Origin: a bacterium
GTDB taxonomy: Bacteria; Patescibacteriota; Microgenomatia; Levybacterales; UBA12049
Assembly (NCBI GenBank): GCA_021784535.1
Contig: JAJYHW010000085.1
Coordinates: 1 to 44,119, forward strand
Direction of reading: 5' to 3'
DNA: 44,119 nt
How positions within the stretch are numbered: the first letter of the stretch is position 1; every line of letters starts with the position of its first letter. The notes beneath the pieces are model-generated. The model had not been told where the DNA came from, made no database searches, and saw only the letters and a program-made list of their open reading frames with translations. Positions 3,100 to 42,536 of this stretch are shown one piece after another. The translations under genes and the position numbers were made by a program.

Positions 3100-3239
3100 G
3101 GACCGATTTTACAATTGAAGATGGAAATCACGGTGAAAATCCGTGGCTGTGCCGCAACTGTAAAGCCAGAAAACTTTTTTTCCCGCGCAGGAGCTTTTTT
3201 TAAGAATCCTTCTGTTTTGCGGAGCAAGAGAAGGATTTT
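3100..3239 (+). promoter_or_regulatory. Cobalamin (AdoCbl-type) riboswitch RS1, short form without a long P6 extension
   Basis: GGAAAT, then a 5-bp stem CACGG/CCGTG (3129-3145) closing a TGAAAAT loop, then GCTGTGCCGCAACTGTAAAGCCAGA. This matches the conserved GGUGAnAAUCC...GCxGxxCCGCAACUGUAA core and B12-box region. Downstream, a 9-bp hairpin (3205-3213 / 3229-3237) buries the GAAGGA Shine-Dalgarno of the ATG at 3240. Confidence 0.75.
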
Positions 3240-3599
3240 ATGAATAAAAAAGTACTCGCCATAGTCATCATTATCATTATTTTTGCTCTTTCAGCGCTTG
3301 GCGTTAGTGAGATTAAGACATTCTCCCATTCTATCCCCAATCCAACAGCTACTCCTGTCTCACAACAGACTACACTTGTGTACAAAGGCATTAATGGAAA
3401 AGATGCTTTAACGCTTCTTAAAGAACATGCGGCTGTCGAACAGGATCATTCAGGATTGGTCATTGGTATCAATGGTAACAAGCCGACAGGGCATCATTAT
3501 TGGGCGTTTTATGTTAATGGCAAGATGAGCCAGGTGGGACCGGCTGAGTATCAGACAAAAAACAGCGATATAATCGAGTGGAAAATAGAGAAATATTAA
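3240..3599 (+). CDS. DUF4430-like secreted or anchored protein (transcobalamin beta-domain-like, probable B12 binder)
   Basis: N-terminal signal/TM segment (VLAIVIIIIIFALSALG). The C-terminal pattern HYWAFYVNG...GPAEY...DIIEWK is typical of DUF4430. It is the first gene after RS1. Confidence 0.7.
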   Translation: MNKKVLAIVIIIIIFALSALGVSEIKTFSHSIPNPTATPVSQQTTLVYKGINGKDALTLLKEHAAVEQDHSGLVIGINGNKPTGHHYWAFYVNGKMSQVGPAEYQTKNSDIIEWKIEKY

Positions 3600-3616
3600 A
3601 AAGTTTAAAGTTCAAA

Positions 3617-4186
3617 ATGAAAAATTCAAAATTACAAATAAAAGTGCAAAATATTATTAGTCCTTTTATAATCATTGCGTTTGCAATTATTTTGAGGTTG
3701 GTCCCGCACCCTCCTAACGTTGCGCCGATTGCAGCAATGGCACTTTTCGGCGGCGTGTACCTCAATAAAAAATACGCACTTATTGTCCCGATTATTGCTC
3801 TGTTTGTTTCAGATATCTTTTTGGGATTTTATTCTGAAATGATATTTGTTTATGGCAGTTTTCTTCTTACCGGATTGATAGGTCTCTGGCTTCGAAATCA
3901 TAAATCCTTCAGAAATGTCATTCTGGCAAGTAGTGGTTCTTCTATCATGTTTTTCCTTATCACCAATTTTGGTGTGTGGCTTATGAGTTCAATGTATGAT
4001 AAAACATTCAATGGCTTGCTGGAATCGTACGCGATGGGGTTACCGTTTTTTAGAAATACGCTGCTTGGAGATCTTGGATACGTCGGATTATTCTTCGGGA
4101 GCTACGAGCTCTTGTCATTATTTATCTTAAATCGTAAAACGCAAATATCAAAACTACATCTCAAATCTAAACATTTTAAGATTTGA
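3617..4186 (+). CDS. Six-TM membrane protein, ECF S-component-like; probable cobalamin transporter subunit
   Basis: About 6 hydrophobic helices. The RLVPHPPNVAPIAAMALFGG motif resembles solitary S-component/DUF6580-type proteins. The ATG at 3617 was chosen over 3578, which overlaps the upstream gene by 22 nt. The function is inferred from operon context only. Confidence 0.6.
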   Translation: MKNSKLQIKVQNIISPFIIIAFAIILRLVPHPPNVAPIAAMALFGGVYLNKKYALIVPIIALFVSDIFLGFYSEMIFVYGSFLLTGLIGLWLRNHKSFRNVILASSGSSIMFFLITNFGVWLMSSMYDKTFNGLLESYAMGLPFFRNTLLGDLGYVGLFFGSYELLSLFILNRKTQISKLHLKSKHFKI

Positions 4187-4223
4187 ATTGTCGGTTTATG
4201 ATTTGAATTTTGAGTTTTGAGAT
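4158..4223. repeat. Heptamer-built imperfect hairpin element
   Basis: Left arm ATCTCAAATCTAAACATT (4158-4175) pairs with AATTTTGAGTTTTGAGAT (4206-4223) at about 14 of 18 positions. The arms are phased 7-mers (GAATTTT/GAGTTTT/GAGATTC). The left arm encodes the last residues of the upstream ORF. Confidence 0.55.
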
Positions 4224-4229
4224 TCTACT

Positions 4230-4769
4230 ATGCCGATTTATACCCGTACTGGCGATAAAGGGAAAACGTCACTTTTTGACGGCACCCGTGTGTTGAAATC
4301 ACACAAGCGCGTTGAGACATATGGAACAATTGATGAGCTTAATAGTATTATTGGTGCTACCGTTGCCCATTTGAAAAATAATGAGAAGCAATTGAAAGTT
4401 GAATTGGAAAAGATTCAAAATGATCTTTTGGATATCGGCTCAGCGCTTGCAACGCCTCATCCGATGCCGGTTATTGGTTTGGAAAATCGTCCAAAAGAGT
4501 TTGAGAAATGTATTGATAATCTCACGCAAAAATTGCCGGAATTAAATGAATTTATTTTACCCGGTGGTGGCAAAGCAGGCTCATTCTTGCATGTCTGCCG
4601 AACGATTGCCAGGCGAGCTGAGCGGCAGCTGGTTGCATTGACACAGAAAGAAAAAGTAGATGAGGCAATTGTTATTTATCTCAATCGCTTGTCAGATCTG
4701 TTATTTACTATGGCGCGATATGTGAATTATATGGAGAAGAAGAAAGAGATTAAGTGGGTAAAGCGATAG
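4230..4769 (+). CDS. pduO: PduO-type ATP:cob(I)alamin adenosyltransferase
   Basis: N-terminus MPIYTRTGDKGKTSLFDG...ETYGTIDELNS and the later RRAER segment are characteristic of PduO-type ATR. 179 aa. Confidence 0.9.
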   Translation: MPIYTRTGDKGKTSLFDGTRVLKSHKRVETYGTIDELNSIIGATVAHLKNNEKQLKVELEKIQNDLLDIGSALATPHPMPVIGLENRPKEFEKCIDNLTQKLPELNEFILPGGGKAGSFLHVCRTIARRAERQLVALTQKEKVDEAIVIYLNRLSDLLFTMARYVNYMEKKKEIKWVKR

Positions 4770-4847
4770 ATGTAAGATGTAGGATTTAAGATGTAGACGT
4801 GAAATATAAAAAATCTTCTTAAATCTTACATCATAAATCTTAAATCT
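4770..4847. repeat. Heptamer-built hairpin element (ATGTAAG family)
   Basis: Left arm ATGTAAG ATGTAGG ATTTAAG ATGTAGA; right arm TAAATCT TACATCA TAAATCT TAAATCT. Positions 4776-4791 pair with 4817-4832 (16 bp including one G-T). It starts 1 nt after the pduO stop. Confidence 0.7.
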
Positions 4848-4854
4848 AATATTT

Positions 4855-4989
4855 TGGGTGAACTTAGTGAAATTCTAAGGCTGTGCCGCAACTGTAAAGC
4901 CAGATCCCCATCCCGATTAATTCGGGGAAAAACCTTCCGAGCAGAAGTTCCTTTTTTTGTGGACTCCTCGGATGACGAGGAGTTTTTTT
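4855..4989 (+). promoter_or_regulatory. Cobalamin riboswitch-like element RS2 with terminator / anti-SD expression platform
   Basis: GGGTGAA, then a 5-bp stem CTTAG/CTAAG (4863-4879) closing a TGAAATT loop, then a 26-nt core (4879-4904) identical to RS1 3145-3170. Downstream is an 8-bp hairpin ACTCCTCG/CGAGGAGT (4963-4983) followed by a T7 run. The 3' arm carries GAGGAG 7 nt before the ATG at 4990. Confidence 0.6.
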
Positions 4990-7591: not shown

Positions 7592-9973
7592 ATGCAATTG
7601 CAAGCAATAACAACACAAAATATATTGAGTATTTTATTATCATTTTTCCTTATTATTGCAGGGATAGCAATTGTTGTTGCTGCTGGTTGGGGACTATTTT
7701 ATATTTTTGTTCTCTGGCTTCGGTATCGGGATCGTGAATCAATATCATTGAATTCTGTCCTGCTGCAGGTAACCGTGCCGCGGGAAAATGAAACAAAAAT
7801 TGATGTAGCAGAGCAGCTTTTTGAGAGCCTTTATGCACTCTATGGATCAACAAAATTTGAATATTTTAGACCGCAGCCGCATCTCTCTTTTGAAATTGTG
7901 GGATTGCCGGGAGATATCCGGTTTTATGTCAATGTCCCCGCGAAATACCGTGATTTTGTTGAAAAAGAGATTAACGGAGCCTATCCTGAAGCAGATATCT
8001 TACCGGTCAATGATCCTGCTGCCAAACAGCGCGACGGGGCGGTTATCGGAACTGAATACAATATCTTTTCTGACAACGGGAAGGTTGCCTTTATGTGGCT
8101 CAATCTGAAAAAAGCGAATTATTTACCCATAAAAGTGTATAAAGATTTACCTGTTGATCCACTCTCTTCTCTTACCTCGATTCTGGGAAAAATGCGTGAA
8201 GGCGAAGGCGCGGCGATTCAAATACTCATACAACCTGCCGGGAATAGCTGGAAAAAAGTAGGCCGCAGTTATATCGGAAGTGTTAAGAAGAATGAGTCAA
8301 ATCCGGAAAAAGCGAGTTATAAAGCTGACGCGAAAGAATTGGAGCAAATAGAGAACAAGCTGCAAAAAGCAGGATTTTATACCACAATTCGCGTGGTTGT
8401 TTGCGCTCAAACGCAAGAAGCGGCAAACGCGCATTTGAATAATATCAAGGGTGCATTTCATCAATTCAATAGCTTGAATGCTTTTAAAAAGCGCTGGCAA
8501 TTTTTTAGAGGATTATTCATGACTGATTTTATTTACCGTTATTTTCCGTTGGTCAGAGAGACGTCAATTCTTACGTCTGATGAACTGGCAACAATTTATC
8601 ATTTCCCCAATAAAAGCATTTTAACGCCGGGCATCCACTGGCTTCATGCCAAGCGCTCTGCTGCTCCTTCCAATCTCGCGACGACAGGACTCTATCTGGG
8701 AAGAAGTACGTTTCGCGGTCTTGCCCGGTCTGTTTTTGTTGAGCGTGACGACAGGCGGCGACACATGTACATTATCGGAAAGACTGGTACTGGTAAAACT
8801 GAATTTCTCAAAAGCATGATTATTCAGGATATCAATAATGGTGAGGGAGTTGCGGTTATTGATCCTCATGGAGATCTGGTAGAAGATATTTTGAAAATGA
8901 TCCCGCCCAAACGGGCTGAAGATGTGGTTCTTTTTGATCCGTCTGATTATGATCGCCCGATGGGATTTAATATGCTGGAAGCAGATACAGAGCAGCAAAA
9001 ACATTTCGCTGTCAATTCATTGATCGGTCTTATGTATAAATTGTTTGATCCGAACAAGACCGGTATTGTGGGGCCGCGCTTTGAACACGCAGTCCGTAAT
9101 GCCATGCTGACTGTTATGTACGAAAAAGGAAGTACCTTGATTGAGGTGATGCGCGTATTGACTGATCCGGCATATGTGCAGGAAGTTTTGCCAAAGGTGC
9201 AGGATCCGATTATTCGGCGATACTGGACTGATCAGATTGCTCAGACGTCAGATTTTCATAAATCCGAGGTACTTGATTATATTACTTCTAAGTTTGGCAG
9301 GTTTGTCACTAACAAAATGATCAGAAATATTATTGGGCAGTCTGACAGCGCGTTTAATTTCCGCAAAGTGATGGATGATCAAAAAATTCTGTTGATCAAT
9401 CTTTCAAAAGGTACGATTGGCGAGGAAAATTCAAATTTTTTGGGTCTGGTTCTGGTGCCAAAGATTCTCGTCGCTGCCATGTCGCGTCAGGATATGCCGA
9501 TGGATCAGCGAAAAGATTTCTTTTTATATGTTGATGAGTTTCAGAATTTTGCAACACCTGATTTTGCGCAGATTCTCTCTGAGGCTCGAAAGTATCGGCT
9601 CAATCTGATTGTTGCCAACCAGTTTATCGGACAGATGGAGGAAGAGATCAAAAATGCTATTTTTGGAAACGTAGGCACGGTTGCCTCTTTCCGAGTCGGA
9701 GTGACTGATGCAAATTATCTTGCCCATGAATTTCAGCCGATTTTTAACGAACAGGATTTAATCAATGTGGATAAGTTTAATTGCTATATGCGTACACTTG
9801 TTAGCGGAGAGCCAGTACGGCCCTTCTCTCTTGATACAACAAAAGATATTACCAGAGAAAAAGCTATGGAGAATCTGCGTGTCGCTGAGCTTGTAAAGGA
9901 ATTATCGCGGCTTAAATACGGAAAATCAGTTGCCACTGTTGAAGCAGAGATTGCTCAACGAGCAAGACTGTAA
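7592..9973 (+). CDS. TM-anchored P-loop ATPase of the TraD/TraG/VirD4 coupling-protein / HerA-FtsK-like type
   Basis: 793 aa with an N-terminal TM hairpin (ILSILLSFFLIIAGIAIVVAAGWGLFYIFVLWL). Walker A is IIGKTGTGKT and Walker B is FFLYVDEFQNF. The C-terminal LIVANQ...GNVGT segment is typical of the TraG-D_C region. Confidence 0.75.
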   Translation: MQLQAITTQNILSILLSFFLIIAGIAIVVAAGWGLFYIFVLWLRYRDRESISLNSVLLQVTVPRENETKIDVAEQLFESLYALYGSTKFEYFRPQPHLSFEIVGLPGDIRFYVNVPAKYRDFVEKEINGAYPEADILPVNDPAAKQRDGAVIGTEYNIFSDNGKVAFMWLNLKKANYLPIKVYKDLPVDPLSSLTSILGKMREGEGAAIQILIQPAGNSWKKVGRSYIGSVKKNESNPEKASYKADAKELEQIENKLQKAGFYTTIRVVVCAQTQEAANAHLNNIKGAFHQFNSLNAFKKRWQFFRGLFMTDFIYRYFPLVRETSILTSDELATIYHFPNKSILTPGIHWLHAKRSAAPSNLATTGLYLGRSTFRGLARSVFVERDDRRRHMYIIGKTGTGKTEFLKSMIIQDINNGEGVAVIDPHGDLVEDILKMIPPKRAEDVVLFDPSDYDRPMGFNMLEADTEQQKHFAVNSLIGLMYKLFDPNKTGIVGPRFEHAVRNAMLTVMYEKGSTLIEVMRVLTDPAYVQEVLPKVQDPIIRRYWTDQIAQTSDFHKSEVLDYITSKFGRFVTNKMIRNIIGQSDSAFNFRKVMDDQKILLINLSKGTIGEENSNFLGLVLVPKILVAAMSRQDMPMDQRKDFFLYVDEFQNFATPDFAQILSEARKYRLNLIVANQFIGQMEEEIKNAIFGNVGTVASFRVGVTDANYLAHEFQPIFNEQDLINVDKFNCYMRTLVSGEPVRPFSLDTTKDITREKAMENLRVAELVKELSRLKYGKSVATVEAEIAQRARL

Positions 9974-15036: not shown

Positions 15037-16002
15037 ATGTTCTCTCGGCAAAAAATTATTGTTTTCCAAAAACATATTCTTGATTGGTACCATGAAAATC
15101 AGCGCCCTCTCCCATGGCGTAAAACCCGGGACCCCTATTGTATTCTCATATCAGAAGTTATGTCTCAGCAGACGCAGCTTTCTCGTGTCATTCCAAAATA
15201 TGAAGCATGGATTAAGAAATTTTCAACTGTGCAAAGTTTGGCAAAAGCAAAAGTATCGGAAGTGTTGGCATATTGGAGTGGACTCGGTTATAACAGGCGA
15301 GCGCTTAATTTGCAAAAAGCTGCTCAGAAAATTGCGCAGGAATATAAAGGGGCTTTTCCACGAACAGAAAAAGAACTTATTGCACTACCTGGGATAGGAA
15401 AATACACAGCGCGGGCGATTCTTTGTTTTGCATTTGATCAACAAGTGGCTGTTGTGGATACCAATGTGAAGAAGGTGATACTGACACAATTAATTAAAAA
15501 CTCGAATGCCGAAGCACGAAATCCTAAACAAATTCGAAATAATAATTGTCAAAGAACAAAACATGTAGAATTTGGAATATTGAAAAATTCAGAAATTATT
15601 TCGAATTTTGGATTTCGAATTTTGGATTTGCCCAAAAACGATGAAACGGAGAGGACGGATTTAAGTGATAAAGAGATAAATGAGATCGCCCAACAACTGC
15701 TTCCAGCAGACAAAGCGTATGAATGGAATCAGGCGCTTATGGATTATGCAGCAACAGTATTGAAGAAAGAAAAAATTCCAATTCCTAAGCAATCAAAATT
15801 TCATGGATCCCATCGGTATTATCGTGGGCAAGTGTTAAAAGTATTATTACAGAAGAAAAAAATTTTGGTAAAGGGTTTGGGTCCATTAATAAAAAAGGAT
15901 TATACAGATTCAGAGGAAGAGTGGCTTCAGCAATTGATAGATGAATTGGTGCATGAAGGATTTGTTAAATATGAAAAAACCATTATTACCCTCGCTTCTT
16001 AA
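15037..16002 (+). CDS. HhH-GPD DNA glycosylase, MutY/EndoIII-like, without the 4Fe-4S cysteine loop and carrying an in-frame repeat insertion
   Basis: WYHENQRPLPWR, LISEVMSQQTQ, GLGYNRRA, LPGIGKYTA and VVDTNV all match the MutY N-terminal domain. The region after NQALMDY contains no cysteine. Confidence 0.8.
   Translation: MFSRQKIIVFQKHILDWYHENQRPLPWRKTRDPYCILISEVMSQQTQLSRVIPKYEAWIKKFSTVQSLAKAKVSEVLAYWSGLGYNRRALNLQKAAQKIAQEYKGAFPRTEKELIALPGIGKYTARAILCFAFDQQVAVVDTNVKKVILTQLIKNSNAEARNPKQIRNNNCQRTKHVEFGILKNSEIISNFGFRILDLPKNDETERTDLSDKEINEIAQQLLPADKAYEWNQALMDYAATVLKKEKIPIPKQSKFHGSHRYYRGQVLKVLLQKKKILVKGLGPLIKKDYTDSEEEWLQQLIDELVHEGFVKYEKTIITLAS
15517..15630. repeat. 114-nt palindromic heptamer element inserted in frame in the glycosylase gene
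   Basis: 15530-15543 pairs with 15595-15608 (14 bp) and 15517-15524 pairs with 15610-15617 (8 bp), with a 51-nt loop. The right arm contains ATTTCGAATTTTGG twice. The element starts on a codon boundary and is 38 codons long. Confidence 0.75.
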
Positions 16003-16029: not shown

Positions 16030-16058
16030 TTGTCAGGAGTATCCTATAAGAGTATAAT
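16030..16058 (+). promoter_or_regulatory. Sigma-70-like promoter directly abutting the start codon
   Basis: TTGTCA (16030-16035), 17-nt spacer, TATAAT (16053-16058), then 8 nt to the ATG at 16067. No SD. Confidence 0.5.
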
Positions 16059-16066
16059 CTTTTTTT

Positions 16067-17451: not shown

Positions 17452-17539
17452 AGGAACATTATATCGTATCTCTTTGGTGAAGAGAAAGTAAAGGATAATT
17501 TAAGAAAACAATTTTACGGTAAAAGAGTATAATAAAATT

Positions 17540-24927: not shown

Positions 24928-24950
24928 AGGTTTATTGTATCATTTGCAGT

Positions 24951-25568
24951 ATGGAGGAGAAGAAGATATGTAGGAAATGCGGGAGGGTTCTTGAAATGCG
25001 CCGGACCAAACGTACTGCGGAGCAATCGCAAAAGCACTATTATTACACAGCATACTATTATTGTCCTCATTGCAATAAGTTATATCATGATGAAAAATTC
25101 AAAGTAATCAATGTGCAGACTGCTCCACTCCATTTTGGCTCTCTCTCTACAGATCCTAGCAGCTATGATGTAGAGATCTGGACTGATGGAGCATGTGTCG
25201 CAAATGGTACGTCTCGTGCAAAAGCAGCCTGGGCATTTGTCAGTGGTGAAACTGAAAGAGCAGATCGCGTAGAGGGTAAGCAGACAAACAATGTCGCTGA
25301 GGGATTGGCGATTTACCATGCCTTATCGTGGGCAGCTGAGAAAGGATACAAACGGATTTTACTCCATACAGACAGTCAGATTTCATTGTATAGCGTAAGA
25401 AAACCCGCAAATAAAGTGCGTGCGAATCGTGAGATATTTGAAAATATTGAAAAGGTGATTGCGGAGAATAAATTGCTTGTGGATTACAAGAAAGTGCTTG
25501 GTCATTCAGGCGATCCCAATAATGAGCGTGCCGATTCGCTGGCAAATGGATTGGCGGTGAAGGGTTGA
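24951..25568 (+). CDS. rnhA: Ribonuclease HI with an N-terminal zinc ribbon
   Basis: CRKCG...CPHCN, then WTDGAC, NNVAEGLA, HTDSQ and NERADSLA (DEDD catalytic residues). Confidence 0.88.
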   Translation: MEEKKICRKCGRVLEMRRTKRTAEQSQKHYYYTAYYYCPHCNKLYHDEKFKVINVQTAPLHFGSLSTDPSSYDVEIWTDGACVANGTSRAKAAWAFVSGETERADRVEGKQTNNVAEGLAIYHALSWAAEKGYKRILLHTDSQISLYSVRKPANKVRANREIFENIEKVIAENKLLVDYKKVLGHSGDPNNERADSLANGLAVKG

Positions 25569-25627: not shown

Positions 25628-25656
25628 TTGCAATATATCTCTGAAAGCGGTATATT
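25628..25656 (+). promoter_or_regulatory. sodN promoter
   Basis: TTGCAA (25628-25633), 17-nt spacer, TATATT (25651-25656), then 6 nt to the ATG at 25663. Confidence 0.55.
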
Positions 25657-25662
25657 ATTTTT

Positions 25663-26076
25663 ATGATCGCGGTTTCCTCGCTATTGCTAAAACTTCTTCC
25701 CACCCAAATAGCCTATGCTCATTGCGACCTTCCTTGTGGTGTCTATGATCCTGCTCAAGCGAGAATAGAGGCGGAAAGCGTCATGAAAATCATGGAGAAA
25801 TACGCAGGTCTTCATGAAGAAGAACAAAAATGGCGAGCAGTCTTCATCAAGGAGCAACGGGCAGAACTAGTCAAACACCATCTTTGGGTTTTGTGGACTG
25901 ATTATTTCAAGCCGGAGCATCTGGAGAAATTTCCGCACTTGCATGATCTTTTCTGGCGTGCAACCAAACAAGCAGGAGAGGCGAAAAAATCTGTTGATCC
26001 GGCCGTGGGTCAAAAACTGCTTGATCTTATTGATGAAATAGATAAAATTTTTAAAGAAACAAAGGCCACAAAGTAA
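25663..26076 (+). CDS. sodN: Nickel superoxide dismutase precursor
   Basis: A 19-aa leader followed by the Ni-hook HCDLPCGVYDPAQARIEAESV. 137 aa. Confidence 0.92.
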   Translation: MIAVSSLLLKLLPTQIAYAHCDLPCGVYDPAQARIEAESVMKIMEKYAGLHEEEQKWRAVFIKEQRAELVKHHLWVLWTDYFKPEHLEKFPHLHDLFWRATKQAGEAKKSVDPAVGQKLLDLIDEIDKIFKETKATK

Positions 26077-26080
26077 TTTA

Positions 26081-26170
26081 CAATTTTCATTTCTCAATTT
26101 TCAATCAAATCAACAATGATGTAATTTTAAAACTTTGAGAAATTGAAAATTTATTAAAAATTGAAAATTT
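26081..26170. repeat. Heptamer-built hairpin element (AATTTYC family)
   Basis: Left arm AATTTTC ATTTCTC AATTTTC AATCAAA; right arm GAGAAAT TGAAAAT ...ATTGAAAATT. 26082-26097 pairs with 26135-26151 (16 bp with one bulge). Confidence 0.7.
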
Positions 26171-26174
26171 AAAA

Positions 26175-26501
26175 ATGTTTCAACAATTATTTCTTCTCCT
26201 CTCCCCTATTTATAAATATCAGATTTTCGGAAGTAGTATGCTGCCGACATTAAAGCCAGGAGATATGGTATTGGTAAATAGAATGAGCTATTTGTTTTTA
26301 TCACCAAAAATCAATGATATTGTCGCGGTTAAAGATCCACGGGAAGGCAAAGTACTGATAAAGCGGATTATGAAGATTGAAGGGAAGAGCTATTTTGTGC
26401 AAGGAGACAATAAAAACGCAAGCACAGATAGCAGGGTTTTTGGTATGATAGGAAGGATTAATATTATTGGGAAAGTTACTGATGTAAAATTTCCAATTTA
26501 A
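26175..26501 (+). CDS. sodX: S26-family signal-peptidase-like protease, NiSOD maturation protease
   Basis: GSSMLPTLKPGD (Ser), LIKRI (Lys) and GDNKNASTDSR. It lies immediately downstream of sodN. Confidence 0.85.
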   Translation: MFQQLFLLLSPIYKYQIFGSSMLPTLKPGDMVLVNRMSYLFLSPKINDIVAVKDPREGKVLIKRIMKIEGKSYFVQGDNKNASTDSRVFGMIGRINIIGKVTDVKFPI

Positions 26502-26597
26502 AATTTTCAATTTTCAATCAAGTCATAATGTTTCAATTTTTTAACATTAGATTATTGGAAATTCAATGAAAATTAGAAATTAAGAATTGAAAATTGT
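26486..26597. repeat. Heptamer-built hairpin element (AATTTYC family)
   Basis: AATTTCC AATTTAA AATTTTC AATTTTC AATCAAG ... GGAAATT CAATGAA AATTAGA AATTAAG AATTGAA AATTG, with an inner 7-bp stem TAATGTT/AACATTA. The left arm supplies the last codons (KFPI) and the stop of sodX. Confidence 0.7.
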
Positions 26598-26600
26598 TCT

Positions 26601-27128
26601 ATGCTTGTCTTAATTCTTATCTTACTTATTCTTGTTATTTTGTTATTTCTTTTGTCGATGCTTTGGCCGCCGGATAGTCCCTGGTCTCCATGGTGGCGAA
26701 CAACGCCAACGCTTGCGCGGCTTGAATGTAAGCTTGCGAAGATTAAAAAAGGAGATATTATTTATGATTTGGGATCAGGTGAAGGAACGGCACTTATCAT
26801 CGCGGCAAAGGAATTTGGTGCAACCGGTGTGGGTATAGAGATTGATCCATTCCGTGCCTGGTATGCCAAGCTTGCCGTTTGGCTAGCTGGAGTTGCGGAC
26901 AAGGTAATAATCAGAAGGGAAAATTTTTTTACTGTTGATATCTCAAAGGCTACAGTTGTTTTTCTCTATTTGACACCGAGAGCTCTTGTCGGTCTTCGTG
27001 AGAAGTTTTTCAAAGAATTGCGGCCAGGTACTCGCGTGGTTACATTTGTCTATCAGATGGATTTGCCTTTGTATGCCAAAGATGACAAGGCAGAAATGTA
27101 CGTCTACGAGATACCAAAGCGAAAGTAA
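26601..27128 (+). CDS. Class I SAM-dependent methyltransferase with an N-terminal TM segment
   Basis: IYDLGSGEGTALI (motif I) and GVGIEIDP. 175 aa. Confidence 0.75.
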   Translation: MLVLILILLILVILLFLLSMLWPPDSPWSPWWRTTPTLARLECKLAKIKKGDIIYDLGSGEGTALIIAAKEFGATGVGIEIDPFRAWYAKLAVWLAGVADKVIIRRENFFTVDISKATVVFLYLTPRALVGLREKFFKELRPGTRVVTFVYQMDLPLYAKDDKAEMYVYEIPKRK

Positions 27129-27260: not shown

Positions 27261-28328
27261 TTATTTTTTCATCCTCAAATACAACCATCTCAGTTTATCT
27301 GCTACTTTGTAGCCTTGATACGCAAGGGGATTGATGACAAGATCATAACTGCCGATGAACTCGACATGTTCGGGGCCGAATTTCCTTTTAAAATCATGAA
27401 AGCCAAACCACGAATCTTTTGGGTCAGGCTCAGAACTCATCGCTCCCCACATGTCAAATTTTTTTAAGCCCAGTTTTTTTCCGAATCGGATACCCTCCCA
27501 CATGGCCAGATTTGAATGCATGACATTGCGATGCTCGTTGCTGGATGCGCCGTAGGGATAATACAAGGTGTCATGAAAGACAAAAAAAAGCAGCGCAGTC
27601 AGCACTTTTTTTTCATAAGTTGCCGTGAACAGGTGTGAGGTAAGTTTGCTGGGGTCGACATCATGTGAGAATGTATGCCATTGCAGTTCGTGATAGTGTC
27701 TGGTGTGAGCATAAAATTTTTGACGTGCTGTTGTCTCTTGCATCAGGCGCCAATATGCTTCAAATGCTTTTTCCGTGTTGTCTTCCTTGACTTCTACAGC
27801 ATGTTTTTTGGCAACTTTGATATTGTAACGTGCTTTCGGGTGCATGCGAGTCAGCAATTCATCTTCAGATTTTGTGAGATCCAGGACAAAGGTATATTTG
27901 GTAAAGAGTGGATGCGCGGCTGGAGGTAATTTCCAATTTCCGATTTCCAGTTTCCAATTTATTATTTTCCTGCTTCCTGCTTCCTGTTTGCTGTTTCTAA
28001 AGACATTTGGTTCCAGTTGAATGAAGATGCAGTTCTCCTGTTTGCCAATTTTATATAATTCATTTATCAATTGCTCATCAGGCATCGTTCCTTTTGGTAG
28101 ATAACCGATGGTAAAATCGGTCTTTGGCAATTTGTGAATGGTGAGTTGAAATCCTGAAATGAGTTTTAGTCCTGAGCTCGTCGAAGGATTTTCATCAAAA
28201 AAACCACTTCGGATTACCTTGATTCCTTCTTTCTCGCGGAATTCTCCCCATTCATAACTTTGGAGAGGATGAGTGACAATAGCGTTATATGCTATTTTTT
28301 GCTTGGAAGTAATAGGCCGGATGTCCAT
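27261..28328 (-). CDS. FemAB/FemX-family peptidoglycan interpeptide-bridge aminoacyltransferase
   Basis: Length and conserved blocks fit the family (QSYEWGEF, KARYNIKVAKK, YYPYGASS, LKKFDMWG). The ATG at 28328 is 6 nt downstream of TAGAAT. Confidence 0.8.
   Translation of the reverse strand: MDIRPITSKQKIAYNAIVTHPLQSYEWGEFREKEGIKVIRSGFFDENPSTSSGLKLISGFQLTIHKLPKTDFTIGYLPKGTMPDEQLINELYKIGKQENCIFIQLEPNVFRNSKQEAGSRKIINWKLEIGNWKLPPAAHPLFTKYTFVLDLTKSEDELLTRMHPKARYNIKVAKKHAVEVKEDNTEKAFEAYWRLMQETTARQKFYAHTRHYHELQWHTFSHDVDPSKLTSHLFTATYEKKVLTALLFFVFHDTLYYPYGASSNEHRNVMHSNLAMWEGIRFGKKLGLKKFDMWGAMSSEPDPKDSWFGFHDFKRKFGPEHVEFIGSYDLVINPLAYQGYKVADKLRWLYLRMKK
27928..27998. repeat. Pyrimidine-strand heptamer tract inside femX
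   Basis: AATTTCC AATTTCC GATTTCC AGTTTCC AATTTAT followed by ATTTTCC TGCTTCC TGCTTCC TGTTTGC TGTTTCT. It is translated on the minus strand as SKQEAGSRKIINWKLEIGNWKL. Confidence 0.7.
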
Positions 28329-28360: not shown

Positions 28361-30253
28361 TTACCAATCAGAAGACCGTTGCGTGATGAGATGTTCCGGT
28401 AGTTCCGTGACAAAACGTGAGACAGTATTGGCTGTCCGCTGTCCAAAAAAAAGCCTGCGTCTGGCATAGGTCAAGAAGAGTTTCTCCTTTGCCCTGGTCA
28501 TCCCCACATAGCAAAGCCGCCGTTCTTCTTCAAGTTCTGATCGATCCATAAGGGATCTTGCGTGTGGAAAAAGACCTTCTTCCATGCCTATGATAAAAAC
28601 GATGGGAAACTCAAGTCCTTTCGCGGCATGCAATGTCATAAGCGTTATGGCATTTTTCTTTTCACCGTTTCCCTGTTTGTCCGAGTGGTATTCCTGTTCG
28701 ACCAGTGAAACATTTTCAAGAAAATCCGTCAAATCAGGAAATGCAATAGCAACTGAACGGAGTTCTTTGATATTTTCCAGTCGCGTTCTGTCTTCTTCAA
28801 GCTTCTCATCGTAGAGTTCGAGATAATTTGTTGCTTTGATAATGCCATCAAGAAGGTCAATAGTTGTCATGCTGACCCTATCTTTTCCGGCAGGAAGGTT
28901 CCCGGCGCCTTTTGTATTTTCTGATTCCGGAGTCTTAGCCAGCTGGCGGATCTCCGAAATGACATTTTGTTGATATTCCAGAAATCTTTGCAGTCTCCCC
29001 TTGCCCAGCTTTTCGATTCTTTTGTATGAGATTGAATCTTTTGCATTGTTTATGACGCGCAAGTAGGCAAGAATGTCTTTAATCTCCTTTCTTTCGTAAA
29101 ATCTCGTGCCGCCGATAAGAAGATACGGCAAGCCATGATGAAGTAACGCTTCCTCGATGACACGGGATTGAGCATTGGTTCGATAGAGAACAGCGACTTG
29201 ATTGAGGCGTTTTAATCCAAGATTGGCGGCTGTTCTGATGATAAAATCCGCCTCATCCTGTTCGTTATCCGCTTCGTACAATTCGATTTCTTCACCATCG
29301 GGATTTTGGGTCCATAATTGCAGTATTGGATGGCTGGTATTTTTTGAAATAATCGTTGATGCGCCATCAAGGATTTTCTGCGTGGAACGATAATTTTGTG
29401 ACAATGAAAAGGTTTTTGTTCCATGAAAGTCATCTTTAAATCTGTTTAAGTTGCGGTAATCTGCTCCACGCCAGCTGTAAATACTCTGAGAGAAATCCCC
29501 AACCACACAAATATTCTGCAAGGCAGAATTTGCTCCGACTAAAAGTTTCGTTAAAACATATTGTGCTCTATTGGTGTCCTGGTATTCGTCAATCAGGATA
29601 TATTTGAAGGTCTCCTGATATTTCTTCAATACCTGATCGTGTTCGCGCAAAAGCTTGATTGTATGGAGAATCAGATCGTCAAAATCCAGCGCATCATTTT
29701 CCTTGAGGATTGTCTGATATATCGGATAAATTTTTGCAACAGTTTCCTGAAAATATCCTCTGGCAAAATTTTGATATTCAGTGGCGGTGATGATTTCATT
29801 TTTTGCTTGAGAAATTGTTGCGTGGACTGAATGGGGCTTAAAGTCTCTCGTTGAGATATCAAGCCGGCGCATGGCTTCCTTAATCGCATCGAGTTGATCT
29901 TGTGAATCATAAATAATAAAATTATGCGAGAAGCCAAGATGATGACTTTCTCGCCTGAGGATTTTGGCGCACATCGCATGGAACGTGGCGACGGTAGGAT
30001 TTGCTACATAAGGTTTGGGAGATAAGGAGTTAATAATTCTTCCTTTCATTTCGTTTGCGGCTTTATTGGTAAACGTTATACATAAAATGGTTGAAGGATC
30101 AATCCCTTTTTCCTCAATAAGATATTGCACTTTACGTGTAAGGACTCGGGTTTTCCCTGATCCTGCGCCGGCAAGAATAATCATCGGTCCATCAGTCGCG
30201 ATGACTGCTTTTTGTTGTTCGGCATTTAAATCCTTGAGTAAGTCTCCATTCAT
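28361..30253 (-). CDS. pcrA: UvrD/PcrA/Rep-family ATP-dependent DNA helicase
   Basis: AGAGSGKT, DEYQDTN, VGDFSQSIYSWRGA, TLHAAKGLEF and VGMTRAK. Confidence 0.9.
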   Translation of the reverse strand: MNGDLLKDLNAEQQKAVIATDGPMIILAGAGSGKTRVLTRKVQYLIEEKGIDPSTILCITFTNKAANEMKGRIINSLSPKPYVANPTVATFHAMCAKILRRESHHLGFSHNFIIYDSQDQLDAIKEAMRRLDISTRDFKPHSVHATISQAKNEIITATEYQNFARGYFQETVAKIYPIYQTILKENDALDFDDLILHTIKLLREHDQVLKKYQETFKYILIDEYQDTNRAQYVLTKLLVGANSALQNICVVGDFSQSIYSWRGADYRNLNRFKDDFHGTKTFSLSQNYRSTQKILDGASTIISKNTSHPILQLWTQNPDGEEIELYEADNEQDEADFIIRTAANLGLKRLNQVAVLYRTNAQSRVIEEALLHHGLPYLLIGGTRFYERKEIKDILAYLRVINNAKDSISYKRIEKLGKGRLQRFLEYQQNVISEIRQLAKTPESENTKGAGNLPAGKDRVSMTTIDLLDGIIKATNYLELYDEKLEEDRTRLENIKELRSVAIAFPDLTDFLENVSLVEQEYHSDKQGNGEKKNAITLMTLHAAKGLEFPIVFIIGMEEGLFPHARSLMDRSELEEERRLCYVGMTRAKEKLFLTYARRRLFFGQRTANTVSRFVTELPEHLITQRSSDW

Positions 30254-30266
30254 AGAGTATAATAAT

Positions 30267-30357
30267 TAGATGTATGATGTAAGATTTATGATTTAAGAAA
30301 AGAAGTGAGGAATTATTGTTTAATAATTTATATCTTACATCTTAAATCTTATATCTT
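30267..30357. repeat. Heptamer-built hairpin element (ATGTAAG/AAGATTT family)
   Basis: Left arm TAGATGT ATGATGT AAGATTT ATGATTT; right arm ATATCTT ACATCTT AAATCTT ATATCTT. 30276-30286 pairs with 30332-30342. An inner stem AATTATT/AATAATT is also present. Confidence 0.65.
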
Positions 30358-30387
30358 AAGACAACACCCATTGTAGCATATTGCCAT

Positions 30388-31092
30388 ATGAAAAAACTTT
30401 TTATTGTCGGGAATTGGAAATCAAATAAAACAATTGCGGAAGCAAAAACATGGCTTCTTGAAATTTCCAATTTCCAATTTCCAATTTCTGATAAACGGGA
30501 AATTATCATTTGTCCGCCATTTTTGCTTATTCCTGAGATGAAAACGTTTATTGATGAGTACAAACTTCCCCTTAAGCTTGGCGTGCAGAATATTTCTCCG
30601 TTTGGCGAAGGAGCATATACCGGTGAGGTATCTGCCAGGACAGCGCAGGAATTTGTCACTCATGCATTAGTCGGACACTCGGAACGGAGACACTATTTTC
30701 ATGAGACCGATGAAGATGTCCTGGCAAAAATAAAACAGCTTTTGCGCTATGATTTAACTCCTGTTTTGTGTATCAGCGACATGAAACAATTGGCTTTTTA
30801 TTTAAAAGAAGATGATGTGATTACTGCCAATGCAGGGAAGATTATTTTTGTCTACGAACCGCCAGATGCGATCAGCGGCGGCGGAGCGTTTCATGCGATA
30901 GATTTAGATACTATTGATGCAAATACTGCTGAGATCAGTAAAATGATAGGCAAAGAAGTAGTTACTCTTTATGGCGGAAGTGTCAATCCAGAAAATGCTG
31001 CGTTGATTTTTGGCTTAGAACACGTTTCTGGAGGTCTACCCGGACAGGCAAGTTTGGATGCTGAAACATTTGCACAAATAATTCATGGATAA
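30388..31092 (+). CDS. tpiA: Triosephosphate isomerase
   Basis: GNWKSN, VGHSERR, YEPPDAI and YGGSV. Confidence 0.92.
   Translation: MKKLFIVGNWKSNKTIAEAKTWLLEISNFQFPISDKREIIICPPFLLIPEMKTFIDEYKLPLKLGVQNISPFGEGAYTGEVSARTAQEFVTHALVGHSERRHYFHETDEDVLAKIKQLLRYDLTPVLCISDMKQLAFYLKEDDVITANAGKIIFVYEPPDAISGGGAFHAIDLDTIDANTAEISKMIGKEVVTLYGGSVNPENAALIFGLEHVSGGLPGQASLDAETFAQIIHG
30462..30489. repeat. AATTTCC x3 plus AATTTCT tandem heptamers inside tpiA
   Basis: Perfectly phased 7-mers, translated as EISNFQFPIS in the loop after the GNWK strand. Confidence 0.75.
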
Positions 31093-41109: not shown

Positions 41110-41153
41110 AATAACAAATAATCCAATATACAAATACTGCCAATCAATAACCA

Positions 41154-41222
41154 AATACAAAATGACAAATTGCCAATACGAAATCATTTAGTATTTAGCA
41201 TTGGTCATTTAGTATTGATTTA
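41154..41222. repeat. Heptamer-built imperfect hairpin straddling a gene boundary
   Basis: Left arm ATACAAA ATGACAA ATTGCCA ATACGAA; right arm TTAGTAT TTAGCAT TGGTCAT TTAGTAT. About 17 of 23 positions are complementary. Confidence 0.6.
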
Positions 41223-42499
41223 CTTAGCAACCGTGCTGCTTTTTCACCTAATTCGACTGCATAATTTGTTCCCCTGTCCCAGGGATAGACCTGTTCAATG
41301 TTGGCAAGAAATACATTAGAGAGCGGCGTTGTCATAGCTGGAATTATACGCGAATAATTGATTGGAATGATCGGCTGAGCAAAAGGAACGGTGAATTTTT
41401 TTAACCCGATAAGATTTTTTTTATAATCCGGGTTTAATTTTTTGAGAAAGGGATCAAAAGTTTTCAATAGCGCTTCTTCGCTCAAAGTGAAATACGGGTG
41501 ATCATGTGGTAAATAGTGACCAAGATAGACAAGGTGCTCATTATTATAATGTTCACTCTTTATAAAATTGGTATGCTCGACAATTGCCAGAAGCGGTGCT
41601 TTGGTGTCGCAAATGCTGAGCCAATAGGTATTATCGGTTAAAAAAGGTTTCTTAAGCCGCATGATTACCACAATAGCTCCGAGCCCTTTAAGATTCAGTA
41701 GTGATTTTTTGTATGGTTCAGGAAGTTGTGGTGCGAGTTTCAAAAACGCAAAAGACGGGAGCGTAACAATAGCTTTATCGTAATTTCCGATTTCCAATTT
41801 CAAATTCCCAATTTTTCTGTATTTGATCTGAGGTTTATTGTTTGAGGAGATCTCGGTTATTTCAGTATTATAATAAATTTTTCCTCCTTTTGCTTCGATA
41901 ATACGAGCGAGATGGTTGGTAAATCTTAAAAAGCCTCCTTCCGGATAAGCAAGACGGGTTGTTCTTTTGGCAATGCGTCCCCAGAACCATGCGAGAGAAA
42001 TGTTTTCTGCATCTGCTCCGAATTTGCCAACGAGCAGCGGTTTCCATAGTAGCTCATACGCTTTTTTGCCAACTGTTTTTTTTAAGTATGCTGCTGTGGT
42101 AAAGCCCTCAAGTGGTTTCCAGAAAGGATTAAAGCGAAGCGGGGTAAGAGCGAGCGCCATCTGTATTCTTTCAAATACGGAAAGTTTCTGAAACGTCAAT
42201 AATGTGAACGGAGAGTCCATTTGATAAATTTTGCCATCTATCAAGTGGGATGTTTTGGGTCTTGTAATAATAACCGGGAAATCCAGTTCTTTTGCAAGAG
42301 CCAACACTGTTTTATCACTGGTAAACCAATGATGATAAAATGCCTCCAGCGTCCAGTCCCAACCAGTTTCCTGATAGCCAATTGCCAGGCCGCCGGGTTG
42401 TGTATCTTTTTCAAAGAGAGTGACGTCGTGCCCGTCTTTGACTAATTGATATGCCGCGGAAAGCCCGGTAAAGCCGGCTCCGATAATTGCTACTCTCAT
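41195..42499 (-). CDS. NAD(P)/FAD-dependent oxidoreductase (HemY/CrtI/amine-oxidase-like fold)
   Basis: MRVAIIGAGFTGLSAAYQL...LFEKDTQPGGLA dinucleotide-binding motif. 434 aa. Confidence 0.8.
   Translation of the reverse strand: MRVAIIGAGFTGLSAAYQLVKDGHDVTLFEKDTQPGGLAIGYQETGWDWTLEAFYHHWFTSDKTVLALAKELDFPVIITRPKTSHLIDGKIYQMDSPFTLLTFQKLSVFERIQMALALTPLRFNPFWKPLEGFTTAAYLKKTVGKKAYELLWKPLLVGKFGADAENISLAWFWGRIAKRTTRLAYPEGGFLRFTNHLARIIEAKGGKIYYNTEITEISSNNKPQIKYRKIGNLKLEIGNYDKAIVTLPSFAFLKLAPQLPEPYKKSLLNLKGLGAIVVIMRLKKPFLTDNTYWLSICDTKAPLLAIVEHTNFIKSEHYNNEHLVYLGHYLPHDHPYFTLSEEALLKTFDPFLKKLNPDYKKNLIGLKKFTVPFAQPIIPINYSRIIPAMTTPLSNVFLANIEQVYPWDRGTNYAVELGEKAARLLSKSILNDQC
41782..41816. repeat. AATTTCC-family heptamer tract inside the oxidoreductase gene
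   Basis: AATTTCC GATTTCC AATTTCA AATTCCC AATTTTT, translated on the minus strand as KIGNLKLEIGNY. Confidence 0.7.
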
Positions 42500-42508
42500 A
42501 CATAAGGT

Positions 42509-42536
42509 ATGCGAATTTCGAACTAATCATTCGCAT
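42509..42536. repeat. Short hairpin between the LPXTG-protein gene and the oxidoreductase gene
   Basis: ATGCGAAT (42509-42516) pairs with ATTCGCAT (42529-42536) across a 12-nt loop. GAAT/CGAA recur with a 7-nt period. Confidence 0.5.

Follow-up and report, generated by a model that had tools for sequence, protein, structure and literature searches.

Among the short repeats described in bacteria, the Rickettsia palindromic elements (RPE) are about 100-150 nt long and lie between genes or in frame inside unrelated housekeeping genes, as old, diverged copies with no known transposase (PMC10969869). [quoted passage not shown] Tandem arrays of 7-nt units, enriched between genes and with units specific to each lineage, are known as the short tandemly repeated repetitive (STRR) sequences of cyanobacteria and as the GGGAATC and TAACTGA repeats of Xanthomonas and Beggiatoaceae, respectively; some form inverted pairs able to fold into stem-loops, some lie just upstream of start codons, and their function is unknown (PMC4692102, PMC4679880). 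Here we describe elements that share traits with each of these, found in a 44,119-nt contig (JAJYHW010000085.1, hereafter the window) from a member of the Patescibacteriota, or candidate phyla radiation (CPR). Both spacers flanking sodX, an S26-type peptidase gene, are filled by palindromes with arms of phased heptamers. We lean towards reading them as copies of a dispersed palindromic family, which we name F1, of selfish non-autonomous DNA comparable to REP, MITEs and RPE.

The two spacers, IG1 and IG2, separate sodN (25663-26076), sodX (26175-26501) and a membrane methyltransferase gene (26601-27128). Both are, as the initial annotation had proposed, imperfect inverted repeats with heptamer arms; they measure 3.3-4.4 units per arm (26075-26177 and 26488-26597), and an inverted-repeat search shows the AATTTTC/AATTTCC units of the left arms to be reverse complementary to the GAAAATT units of the right ones. 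The period-7 arrays delimited by Tandem Repeats Finder lie at 26075-26105, 26153-26176, 26488-26518 and 26567-26596. The first copy (26075-26177, plus strand) fills the sodN-sodX spacer, with AATTTAC/AATTTTC/ATTTCTC units in its left arm (26075-26108), the conserved core AATCAAATCAACAATG, and GAAATTG/AAAATTG units in its right arm (26135-26174), which ends in GAAAAT, 6 nt and the sodX ATG. The second copy (26488-26597, plus strand) fills the sodX-methyltransferase spacer; its left arm provides the last codons and stop of sodX (KFPI*), and its right arm ends in GAAAAT, 6 nt and the methyltransferase ATG. The suggestion that such elements may supply the ends of reading frames was borne out here (...VKFPI* in the left arm) and for the DUF6580 gene (...KSKHFKI* at 4186), and the sodX ortholog of the relative L012 stops about 5 residues earlier than sodX of the window. 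IG1 and IG2 align in direct orientation over their full length, loop included (CAATCAARTCA.AYAATG...AATTTT..AAC.TT), with 81% mean column identity in the pair alignment and 74% pairwise identity in the 15-member alignment described below. Since they align end to end, they are homologous copies and not two independent products of slippage.

Further copies were found in public metagenome contigs scanned with an 18-mer shared by the two spacers (CAATTTTCAATCAARTCA). At least 120 stretches matched; most of those inspected are chance matches in A+T-rich DNA, and a clear subset shares the F1 architecture. The family alignment holds 15 copies, two from the window and 13 from other metagenome contigs among the matches listed, and a family profile was built from nine of them. 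The first sodX-flanking copy is recovered by nhmmer at E = 8.8e-15, with a profile partly built from that copy itself, and the second at E = 5.7e-18; the latter is 85% identical to a copy from another metagenome (L144). The 15-member consensus reads (AATTTTC)n AATCAAATCACAATG, a variable loop, and CATTGAAAATTCATTGNAAATTGA (GAAAATT)n, for a size of about 100-130 nt. The copies are dispersed over Levybacteria-like and more distant bacteria, all known from metagenomes alone. In contigs L134 and L206 the element is shared at 86% (blastn) and the flanks have no similarity at all. The profile search returned three copies within 4 kb in L147, two in L103, and further partial matches in L127, L199 and L097. 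In L103, for example, copies sit where rplK meets rplA and in the spacer immediately upstream of nusG, and in L147 where trxB meets gdh. Every one of the 15 aligned copies is flanked by open reading frames (ORFs) on both sides, the nearest ORF end being at most 20 nt away at 17 of 29 measured edges and the largest gap 92 nt; ten are in sense and four in antisense orientation to the neighbouring genes.

The same junctions in related genomes show that the elements come and go as whole units. By PcrA identity, the nearest relatives of the window are Levybacteria-type metagenome-assembled genomes (L011, 75%; L012, 74%; L013, 63%; L014, 60%), followed by Gottesman-, Curtiss- and Roizmanbacteria. 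L011 is a complete 1.61-Mb chromosome (OZ246394.1) titled 'uncultured Gammaproteobacteria bacterium'; its synteny with the window over a dozen genes, with PcrA and ClpB 75-82% identical, shows it to be a Levybacteria-like CPR genome whose label looks wrong. The gene order sodN-sodX-methyltransferase-FemAB-pcrA-tpiA-lytR is kept in L012, L013 and L014. In L013 and L014 the first three of these genes abut or overlap; in L012 the sodX-methyltransferase spacer measures 2 nt, and a 58-nt sodN-sodX spacer holds an unrelated CCTGG...CCAGG hairpin. The first F1 copy has no counterpart in any of these three genomes. Given such tight packing in the relatives, both elements of about 100 nt are lineage-specific additions inside an operon. 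A comparison of syntenic loci, which the initial annotation had called for, thus finds whole elements present or absent at conserved junctions across L011-L014.

The divergent pcrA-tpiA spacer gives a second example. Its flanks are conserved as the -10-like boxes AGAGTATAAT (plus strand) and CCCATTGTA (that is, TACAATGGG on the minus strand), and what lies between them differs: a heptamer hairpin of another family in the window (hairpin C, 30265-30363), in L011 an unrelated GC-rich hairpin of 80 nt (GTCATTGCG...CGCAATGAC; the spacer as a whole folds at -35 kcal/mol), and in L013 just 11 nt. Similarly, a loop of the FemAB protein is encoded by heptamer arrays in the window and by a different in-frame GC-rich palindrome (-44 kcal/mol) in L012. 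Same flanks with different fillings indicate permissive slots that are occupied by different palindromic families in sister lineages. The G+C-rich palindromes of the sister lineages (L011:9885-10005, L012:8630-8700 and L012:7006-7113; GTCATTGCG...CGCAATGAC, and CGTCATTCTGG...CCAGAATGACG at -44 kcal/mol) occupy the pcrA-tpiA spacer, the sodN-sodX spacer and the FemAB loop, there with the in-frame peptide HSGGVQNQ...DSGQARMT.

Genes themselves can harbour copies as well. In L127, one complete F1 hairpin and half of another lie in frame in a membrane protein of 513 aa, giving the peptides NNFQFIIFNFHSIFKFKFLNIKNSLIISNLKLKI and NFQFSLFNFQSNHNFKFLNIKN; a protein search with a 40-aa F1-encoded peptide returned no match at E <= 0.001, owing to the short, low-complexity query. 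Heptamer-encoded inserts are present in TrxB and GDH of L147 (VKSQKSKVKS and KLKIENLKLKI), and the variable loop of PcrA after helicase motif Ia holds in-frame heptamer arrays or hairpins in L015, L017, L018 and L024 (hairpins in L017 and L018). Several in-frame arrays of the window were overlooked by the initial annotation. Two adjacent ones in FemAB (27925-28000, minus strand; AATTTCC x4.7 and TTCCTGC x4.4) encode QEAGSRKIINWKLEIGNWKL; in the protein alignment they fall in a length-variable loop, and they form no hairpin (fold z = +1.7). Triosephosphate isomerase (TIM) has an array in a variable loop at 30453-30497 (plus strand; AATTTCC x3.9, 100% matches; ISNFQFPIS), and the amine oxidase has an AATTTCC-type array at 41778-41815 (minus strand; KIGNLKLEIGN) in a loop 2-6 residues longer than in L013 and L014 by ortholog alignment. 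An HhH-GPD glycosylase carries ATTTCGA/ATTTTGG units at 15597-15630 (plus strand; period 14 at 100%) in a C-terminal extension, at about residues 187-198, the Pfam domain ending at residue 149. An AAAATTC-like array at the DUF4430/DUF6580 gene junction (3591-3643, plus strand), equally overlooked, forms either N-terminal codons or spacer; the Pfam match of DUF6580 begins at residue 25.

The distribution of units between genes and spacers follows their stop codons. All frames of (GAAAATT)n run into a TGA within 21 nt, which leaves AATTTTC arrays translatable in the sense direction only, whereas AATTTCC is open on both strands; the intergenic F1 copies have stops in nearly all frames, and the three AATTTCC arrays of the window all lie inside genes. 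This pattern fits a filter acting on survivors. Each F1 copy is made of outer tandem-heptamer arms, (AATTTTC)n on one side and (GAAAATT)n on the other, which enclose a conserved core, AATCAAATCACAATG ... GAAAATTCATTGTAAATTGA. In the scheme that we propose, F1 and sibling families with other units, such as the GATKTAW hairpins that we name F2, would be selfish DNA in the manner of REP, MITEs or RPE. In a genome that is 93% coding, copies would be gained where they do little harm, at gene junctions and in tolerant surface loops of proteins. Once a copy is in place, slippage or conversion may alter its tandem arms, both in the number of units and in their sequence, and could so give rise to the different unit 'alphabets'. 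We infer both the movement of copies and this slippage step from the patterns above. The view of the initial annotation that these form a structured-repeat family at gene ends is supported, and of the origins that it put forward a non-autonomous mobile or slippage-prone one fits best.

The 7-nt periodicity stands out in the window as a whole. In a lag scan with 21-nt windows and 50 dinucleotide shuffles as control, 17 regions at lag 7 reach at least 15/21 matches; the other lags from 3 to 13, and lag 15, have 0-6, and lag 14, itself a multiple of 7, has 12. At 18/21 or more, lag 7 keeps 4 regions and the shuffles have none at any lag. The predicted excess over shuffled sequence is therefore real. 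Tandem Repeats Finder reports more than 12 period-7 arrays in the window besides those at sodX. By our ORF map 92.8% of the window is coding, and 9 of 15 non-trivial arrays fall in the 7.2% that is intergenic (binomial p = 1.8e-7, about 19-fold enrichment), so that, within the window, the expected concentration at gene boundaries also holds. The window holds 34 arrays per 100 kb; the corresponding values are 13.8 for CPR relatives (216 kb) and 2.2 for non-CPR loci retrieved with the same PcrA query (1.1 Mb), a difference of about 15-fold between the window and these control loci. Heptamer arrays are missing from the 32 kb examined of L011 and L012, which are the closest relatives, and are present in more distant Microgenomates. 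The lag-7 scan recovers known heptamer repeats, since it found long GGGGATT arrays, a unit described for Nostoc PCC 7120 (PMC4692102), at L184:42-105 and 1092-1153. This metagenome contig entered as a chance match, is the sole one with GGGGATT, and is taken to be cyanobacterial from its repeat unit alone.

Elsewhere in the window the architecture recurs less widely than had been listed: it is clear at two of the five sites, weak or degenerate at two others, and lacking at 42509-42536, a plain 8-bp hairpin without heptamer phasing that we exclude from the family. The two clear cases are the F2 hairpins. Hairpin B (4764-4855, plus strand; Tandem Repeats Finder) has GATGTAA/GATTTAA arms facing TTACATC/TTAAATC and lies between the stop codon of a cobalamin adenosyltransferase gene and an AdoCbl-II riboswitch (4843-4918), and its RNA fold reaches -22 kcal/mol (z = -4.9; 0 of 200 shuffles equally stable). 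Hairpin C (plus strand; Tandem Repeats Finder), described above, folds at z = -3.1 on the plus and -3.3 on the minus strand; directly upstream of it lies TTGAGT-18-TATAAT (30234-30263), the best promoter-like site of the region. Hairpins B and C align in their arms but not in their loops, and share the unit alphabet GATKTAW. The weak pair (4124-4229, plus strand), at the 3' end of the DUF6580 gene and in the spacer before 4230, sets TCTCAAA/ATCTAAA against TTTGAGT/TTTGAGA with an inverted unit match of 5/7 in the lag-7 scan, and folds as two separate small hairpins (z = -2.2). The degenerate one (41140-41230, no strand assigned) sets NNNAAAT against ATTTAGT units at the junction of two minus-strand genes, where it overlaps the final codons of the amine oxidase gene as well as the start annotated for the gene that follows (Tandem Repeats Finder period 7, 69% matches; fold z = -2.9 on both strands); ortholog alignments end 6-8 residues before the C-terminus of the amine oxidase of the window. 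Around hairpin B, two AdoCbl-II riboswitch matches (3123-3174 and 4843-4918) belong to a B12-related cluster of genes for DUF4430, DUF6580, cobalamin adenosyltransferase and a ribonucleotide reductase with a TSCPD domain, taken to be class II and B12-dependent; the second riboswitch adjoins the right arm of hairpin B with an overlap of a few nucleotides.

Several results weigh against selfish mobile DNA. Neither a transposase nor a RAYT or IS200-like gene was found by Pfam in 30 proteins of the window, the other nine having housekeeping families or no match in the precomputed Pfam annotation of an identical contig. A tblastn search with IS608 TnpA and E. coli RAYT, which is a weak test, gave no match in 2.1 Mb of loci, a small part of each genome, and two scans of viral contigs as a possible vector of spread returned chance matches only. 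Contigs identical to the window exist in GCA_027424695.1 and several ENA and Logan assemblies, and across ten assemblies from this population, one strain of which has diverged by 1.1%, neither insertions nor copy number nor unit number are seen to vary. No target-site duplication is visible at sodN/sodX, sodX/methyltransferase or pcrA-tpiA, where the element ends are fuzzy and would accommodate a duplication of 2-3 nt. Copies within a genome are 73-79% alike and those on different contigs up to 94%, unlike a recent burst. L159 has a PcrA with 47% and a FemAB with 45% identity to the proteins of the window, and still its F1 copy keeps 71-77% nucleotide identity; neutral junk would not be expected to be so conserved, and either sequence constraint or horizontal spread is needed. 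Finally, the TIM and amine oxidase arrays replace similar ancestral residues with little or no change in length, and TIM of L012 has the same length and a degenerate repeat, CAAATCT CCAATTC CCAGTTT (TNLQFPVS), at the site of the array, which suggests in-place homogenisation of these two arrays rather than new insertion.

With respect to strain variation, the contig of strain L008 (GCA_027391585.1) differs from the window by 17 substitutions in 1.5 kb and by none in the repeat elements. Sixteen of these lie within 74 nt of the RNase H gene (25463-25536), a cluster that looks like a recombination tract. The RNase H protein (24951-25568), encoded just upstream of sodN, has an N-terminal extension of about 70 residues with two CxxC pairs, possibly a zinc ribbon. 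Among housekeeping neighbours, a 793-aa protein (7592-9973) shows weak TrwB/VirD4-type coupling-protein and HerA-like ATPase domains.

The first of the rival explanations, arguable although unlikely, is that F1 is a portable promoter or operon-punctuation cassette for leaderless mRNAs, from which a gene uncoupled from translation by an insertion could be transcribed alone as a leaderless mRNA. To judge from start-codon contexts, the genome appears to run largely on such messages: in 17 of 39 window genes a TATAAT-like box (at least 5/6 matches) precedes the start codon by 3-9 nt, most often by 6-7 nt, and a Shine-Dalgarno-like motif is as rare as 5 of 39, both of which would suit a cassette of this kind. 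Examples of the TATAAT-like boxes lie at 16050-16066, 17523-17539, 24928-24950 and 25645-25662. In the outward (TTGAAAA)n arm, the 7-nt phasing puts exactly 17 bp between a TTGAAA that resembles a -35 box and a GAAAAT that resembles a -10 box (3 x 7 = 21, and 21 + 2 = 23), and because the element is palindromic the same outward arm is presented in either orientation. The sodX and methyltransferase genes lack a TATAAT-like box, and the element supplies GAAAAT, 6 nt and ATG to each. Six family copies abut a downstream ATG with GAAAAT 2-6 nt before it, five of them with TTGNAA or ATGAAA exactly 17 nt upstream; of the copies set back from the ATG, five have a canonical -10 box of their own in the intervening stretch. 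In a promoter scan, each arm of IG1 shows an outward-facing TTGAAA-18-N6 site, and the conservation of the family sequence across deeply diverged hosts would be in keeping with a function.

Against these points, GAAAAT lacks the T at position 1 that is found in every strong -10 box of the window, and the -35-like hexamer at sodX is only 14 nt away. A+T-rich repeats fit promoter consensus sequences easily, and promoter-like sites show no excess (24, against 18.8 +- 4.5 in shuffles). Transcription from the arm that faces the upstream gene would run into it in antisense, the geometry is not reproduced by the F2 alphabet, and relatives lack the elements at these junctions, where they are thus not required. 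The promoter-like placement may then reflect either the survivor filter or true promoter function. That the heptamer phasing is itself functional geometry, with the (TTGAAAA)n arm acting as a sigma-70-type promoter and F1 as a mobile, orientation-independent cassette for leaderless transcription, is a conjecture that we would put forward with little confidence. If it held, it would explain why arms end 2-6 nt before start codons, why the family is conserved across CPR lineages with PcrA as low as 47% identical, and how the genes downstream survive when an element interrupts a translationally coupled operon. It would also provide a testable rule of gene expression for a leaderless, Shine-Dalgarno-poor CPR lineage, and a reason for 7 as the favoured repeat unit.

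It is improbable that nothing moves at all, and that the arrays are heptamer microsatellites grown in place by polymerase slippage, with hairpins arising from local inverted duplication or template switching. The diversity of units (62 distinct canonical units among 118 arrays) is what such a process would leave, as are the F2 hairpins, alike in arms and not in loops, and the TIM and amine oxidase arrays, which sit where orthologs have similar residues and a degenerate repeat. Heptamers are moreover the over-represented class of long simple sequences in many bacteria, and slippage associated with the footprint of the polymerase is a proposed cause (Mrazek 2007, cited by PMC4692102). What slippage cannot make independently is the non-repetitive core and loop that F1 copies share at unrelated loci and contigs, and junctions that are otherwise conserved differ in having or lacking an entire 100-nt element. 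Nor do the arrays look hypermutable, the ten population assemblies being free of unit-number variation.

A role of the hairpins in RNA, either as intrinsic terminators or as 3' or 5' stem-loops that stabilise or segment polycistronic mRNA, is very unlikely. The elements do fold at -14 to -22 kcal/mol, and their starts coincide with stop codons; hairpin C, lying between two divergent conserved -10 boxes and hence within the 5' leaders of pcrA and tpiA, would start a few nucleotides downstream of the predicted tpiA transcription start. The stability of F1 is nevertheless modest (z = -1.0 and -2.3 for the sodX elements, the second at -20.5 kcal/mol), without consistent strand bias; both orientations occur, and two copies stand inside an operon that is tightly coupled in relatives. 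RNAalifold on the 15 F1 copies finds only an invariant 8-bp stem, CAATTTTC/GAAAATTG, with no compensatory pairs, and no element matches Rfam at the gathering threshold in the whole window, matches at E <= 10 being at chance level. There is thus no evidence of selection on RNA pairing. The idea that the 7-nt phasing opens many alternative pairing registers holds weakly, shifts of +-7 or +-14 giving 0.7-3.8 expected pairs against 10-22 in the main register. The terminator role that the initial annotation had considered has to be given up: no element is followed by a T-run or called terminator-like, the stems are A+T-rich rather than G+C-rich, the elements lie inside an operon or in 5' leaders, and arrays also occur in coding sequence. 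Phase-variable contingency repeats are unlikely as well, with ten assemblies free of unit-number change and arrays in housekeeping genes.

Palindromic repeats in such a host bear on a wider question. CPR genomes are small, tightly packed and usually described as repeat-poor, and here a repeat family splits conserved operons, shares its slots with unrelated palindromes of sister lineages, and writes peptides with a 7-residue period into essential enzymes (TIM, PcrA, FemAB, TrxB and GDH). This raises the question of how selfish DNA is tolerated in reduced genomes. There are practical effects as well, on annotation, where some ORFs are spurious or extended and CPR proteins show odd inserts of low complexity, and on assembly and binning, since such repeats break contigs. 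A literature search for the repeat sequences and for repeat elements of CPR/Patescibacteria returned no description of the F1 family.

Compared with mobile short repeats, F1 resembles REP and MITEs in being short, non-coding and multi-copy, with inverted-repeat arms and presence or absence between relatives, and it agrees with MITEs in size and structure (about 50-500 bp, non-coding, multi-copy, terminal inverted repeats; 15 copies, at most 3 per contig). Unlike MITEs, it shows no target-site duplication signature at the sites compared and its intragenomic copies are not near-identical, and no parent insertion sequence was found in the loci searched; unlike REP and REPIN, it has A+T-rich stems and copies in frame in genes, and RAYT was not found, in what is a weak test. 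The initial annotation was fair in comparing the elements with REP and MITEs, but tandem heptamer arrays, inverted pairs included, are known from cyanobacteria and Xanthomonas (PMC4692102). With the STRR of Calothrix and Nostoc the window shares 7-nt tandem units that are over-represented relative to other periods and enriched between genes. The units differ (AATTTYC, GATKTAW, TTCCTGC and others here, CCCCAGT, TTGGTCA, CAACAGT, GGGAATC and TAACTGA in the known cases); those of F1 and F2 are A+T-rich, many kinds coexist in one genome, arrays also lie in frame in essential enzymes, and F1 arrays are the arms of an element whose conserved non-repetitive core recurs across genomes. Small dispersed repeats nested in tandem heptamers were reportedly described in Nostoc by Elhai and colleagues in 2008, and would be the closest architectural parallel.

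The likeness to RPE, made by description, lies in palindromes of about 100 nt in a small reduced genome, with intergenic copies and in-frame copies that add a family-typical peptide: F1 encodes NFQFSIFNFQS... in the L127 membrane protein, and arrays lie in loops of FemAB, TIM, amine oxidase and PcrA. The hosts differ, CPR/Microgenomates here and Alphaproteobacteria for RPE, and arms of tandem heptamers are unreported for RPE. By analogy, RPE are the closest counterpart in behaviour, and the heptamer repeats of cyanobacteria and Xanthomonas the closest for the arms. Precedents exist for tandem heptamer arrays, for inverted pairs of such arrays and for palindromic elements in frame; what appears to be new is their combination, a heptamer-armed palindrome with a conserved core across CPR/Microgenomates that splits operons and writes periodic peptides into core enzymes.

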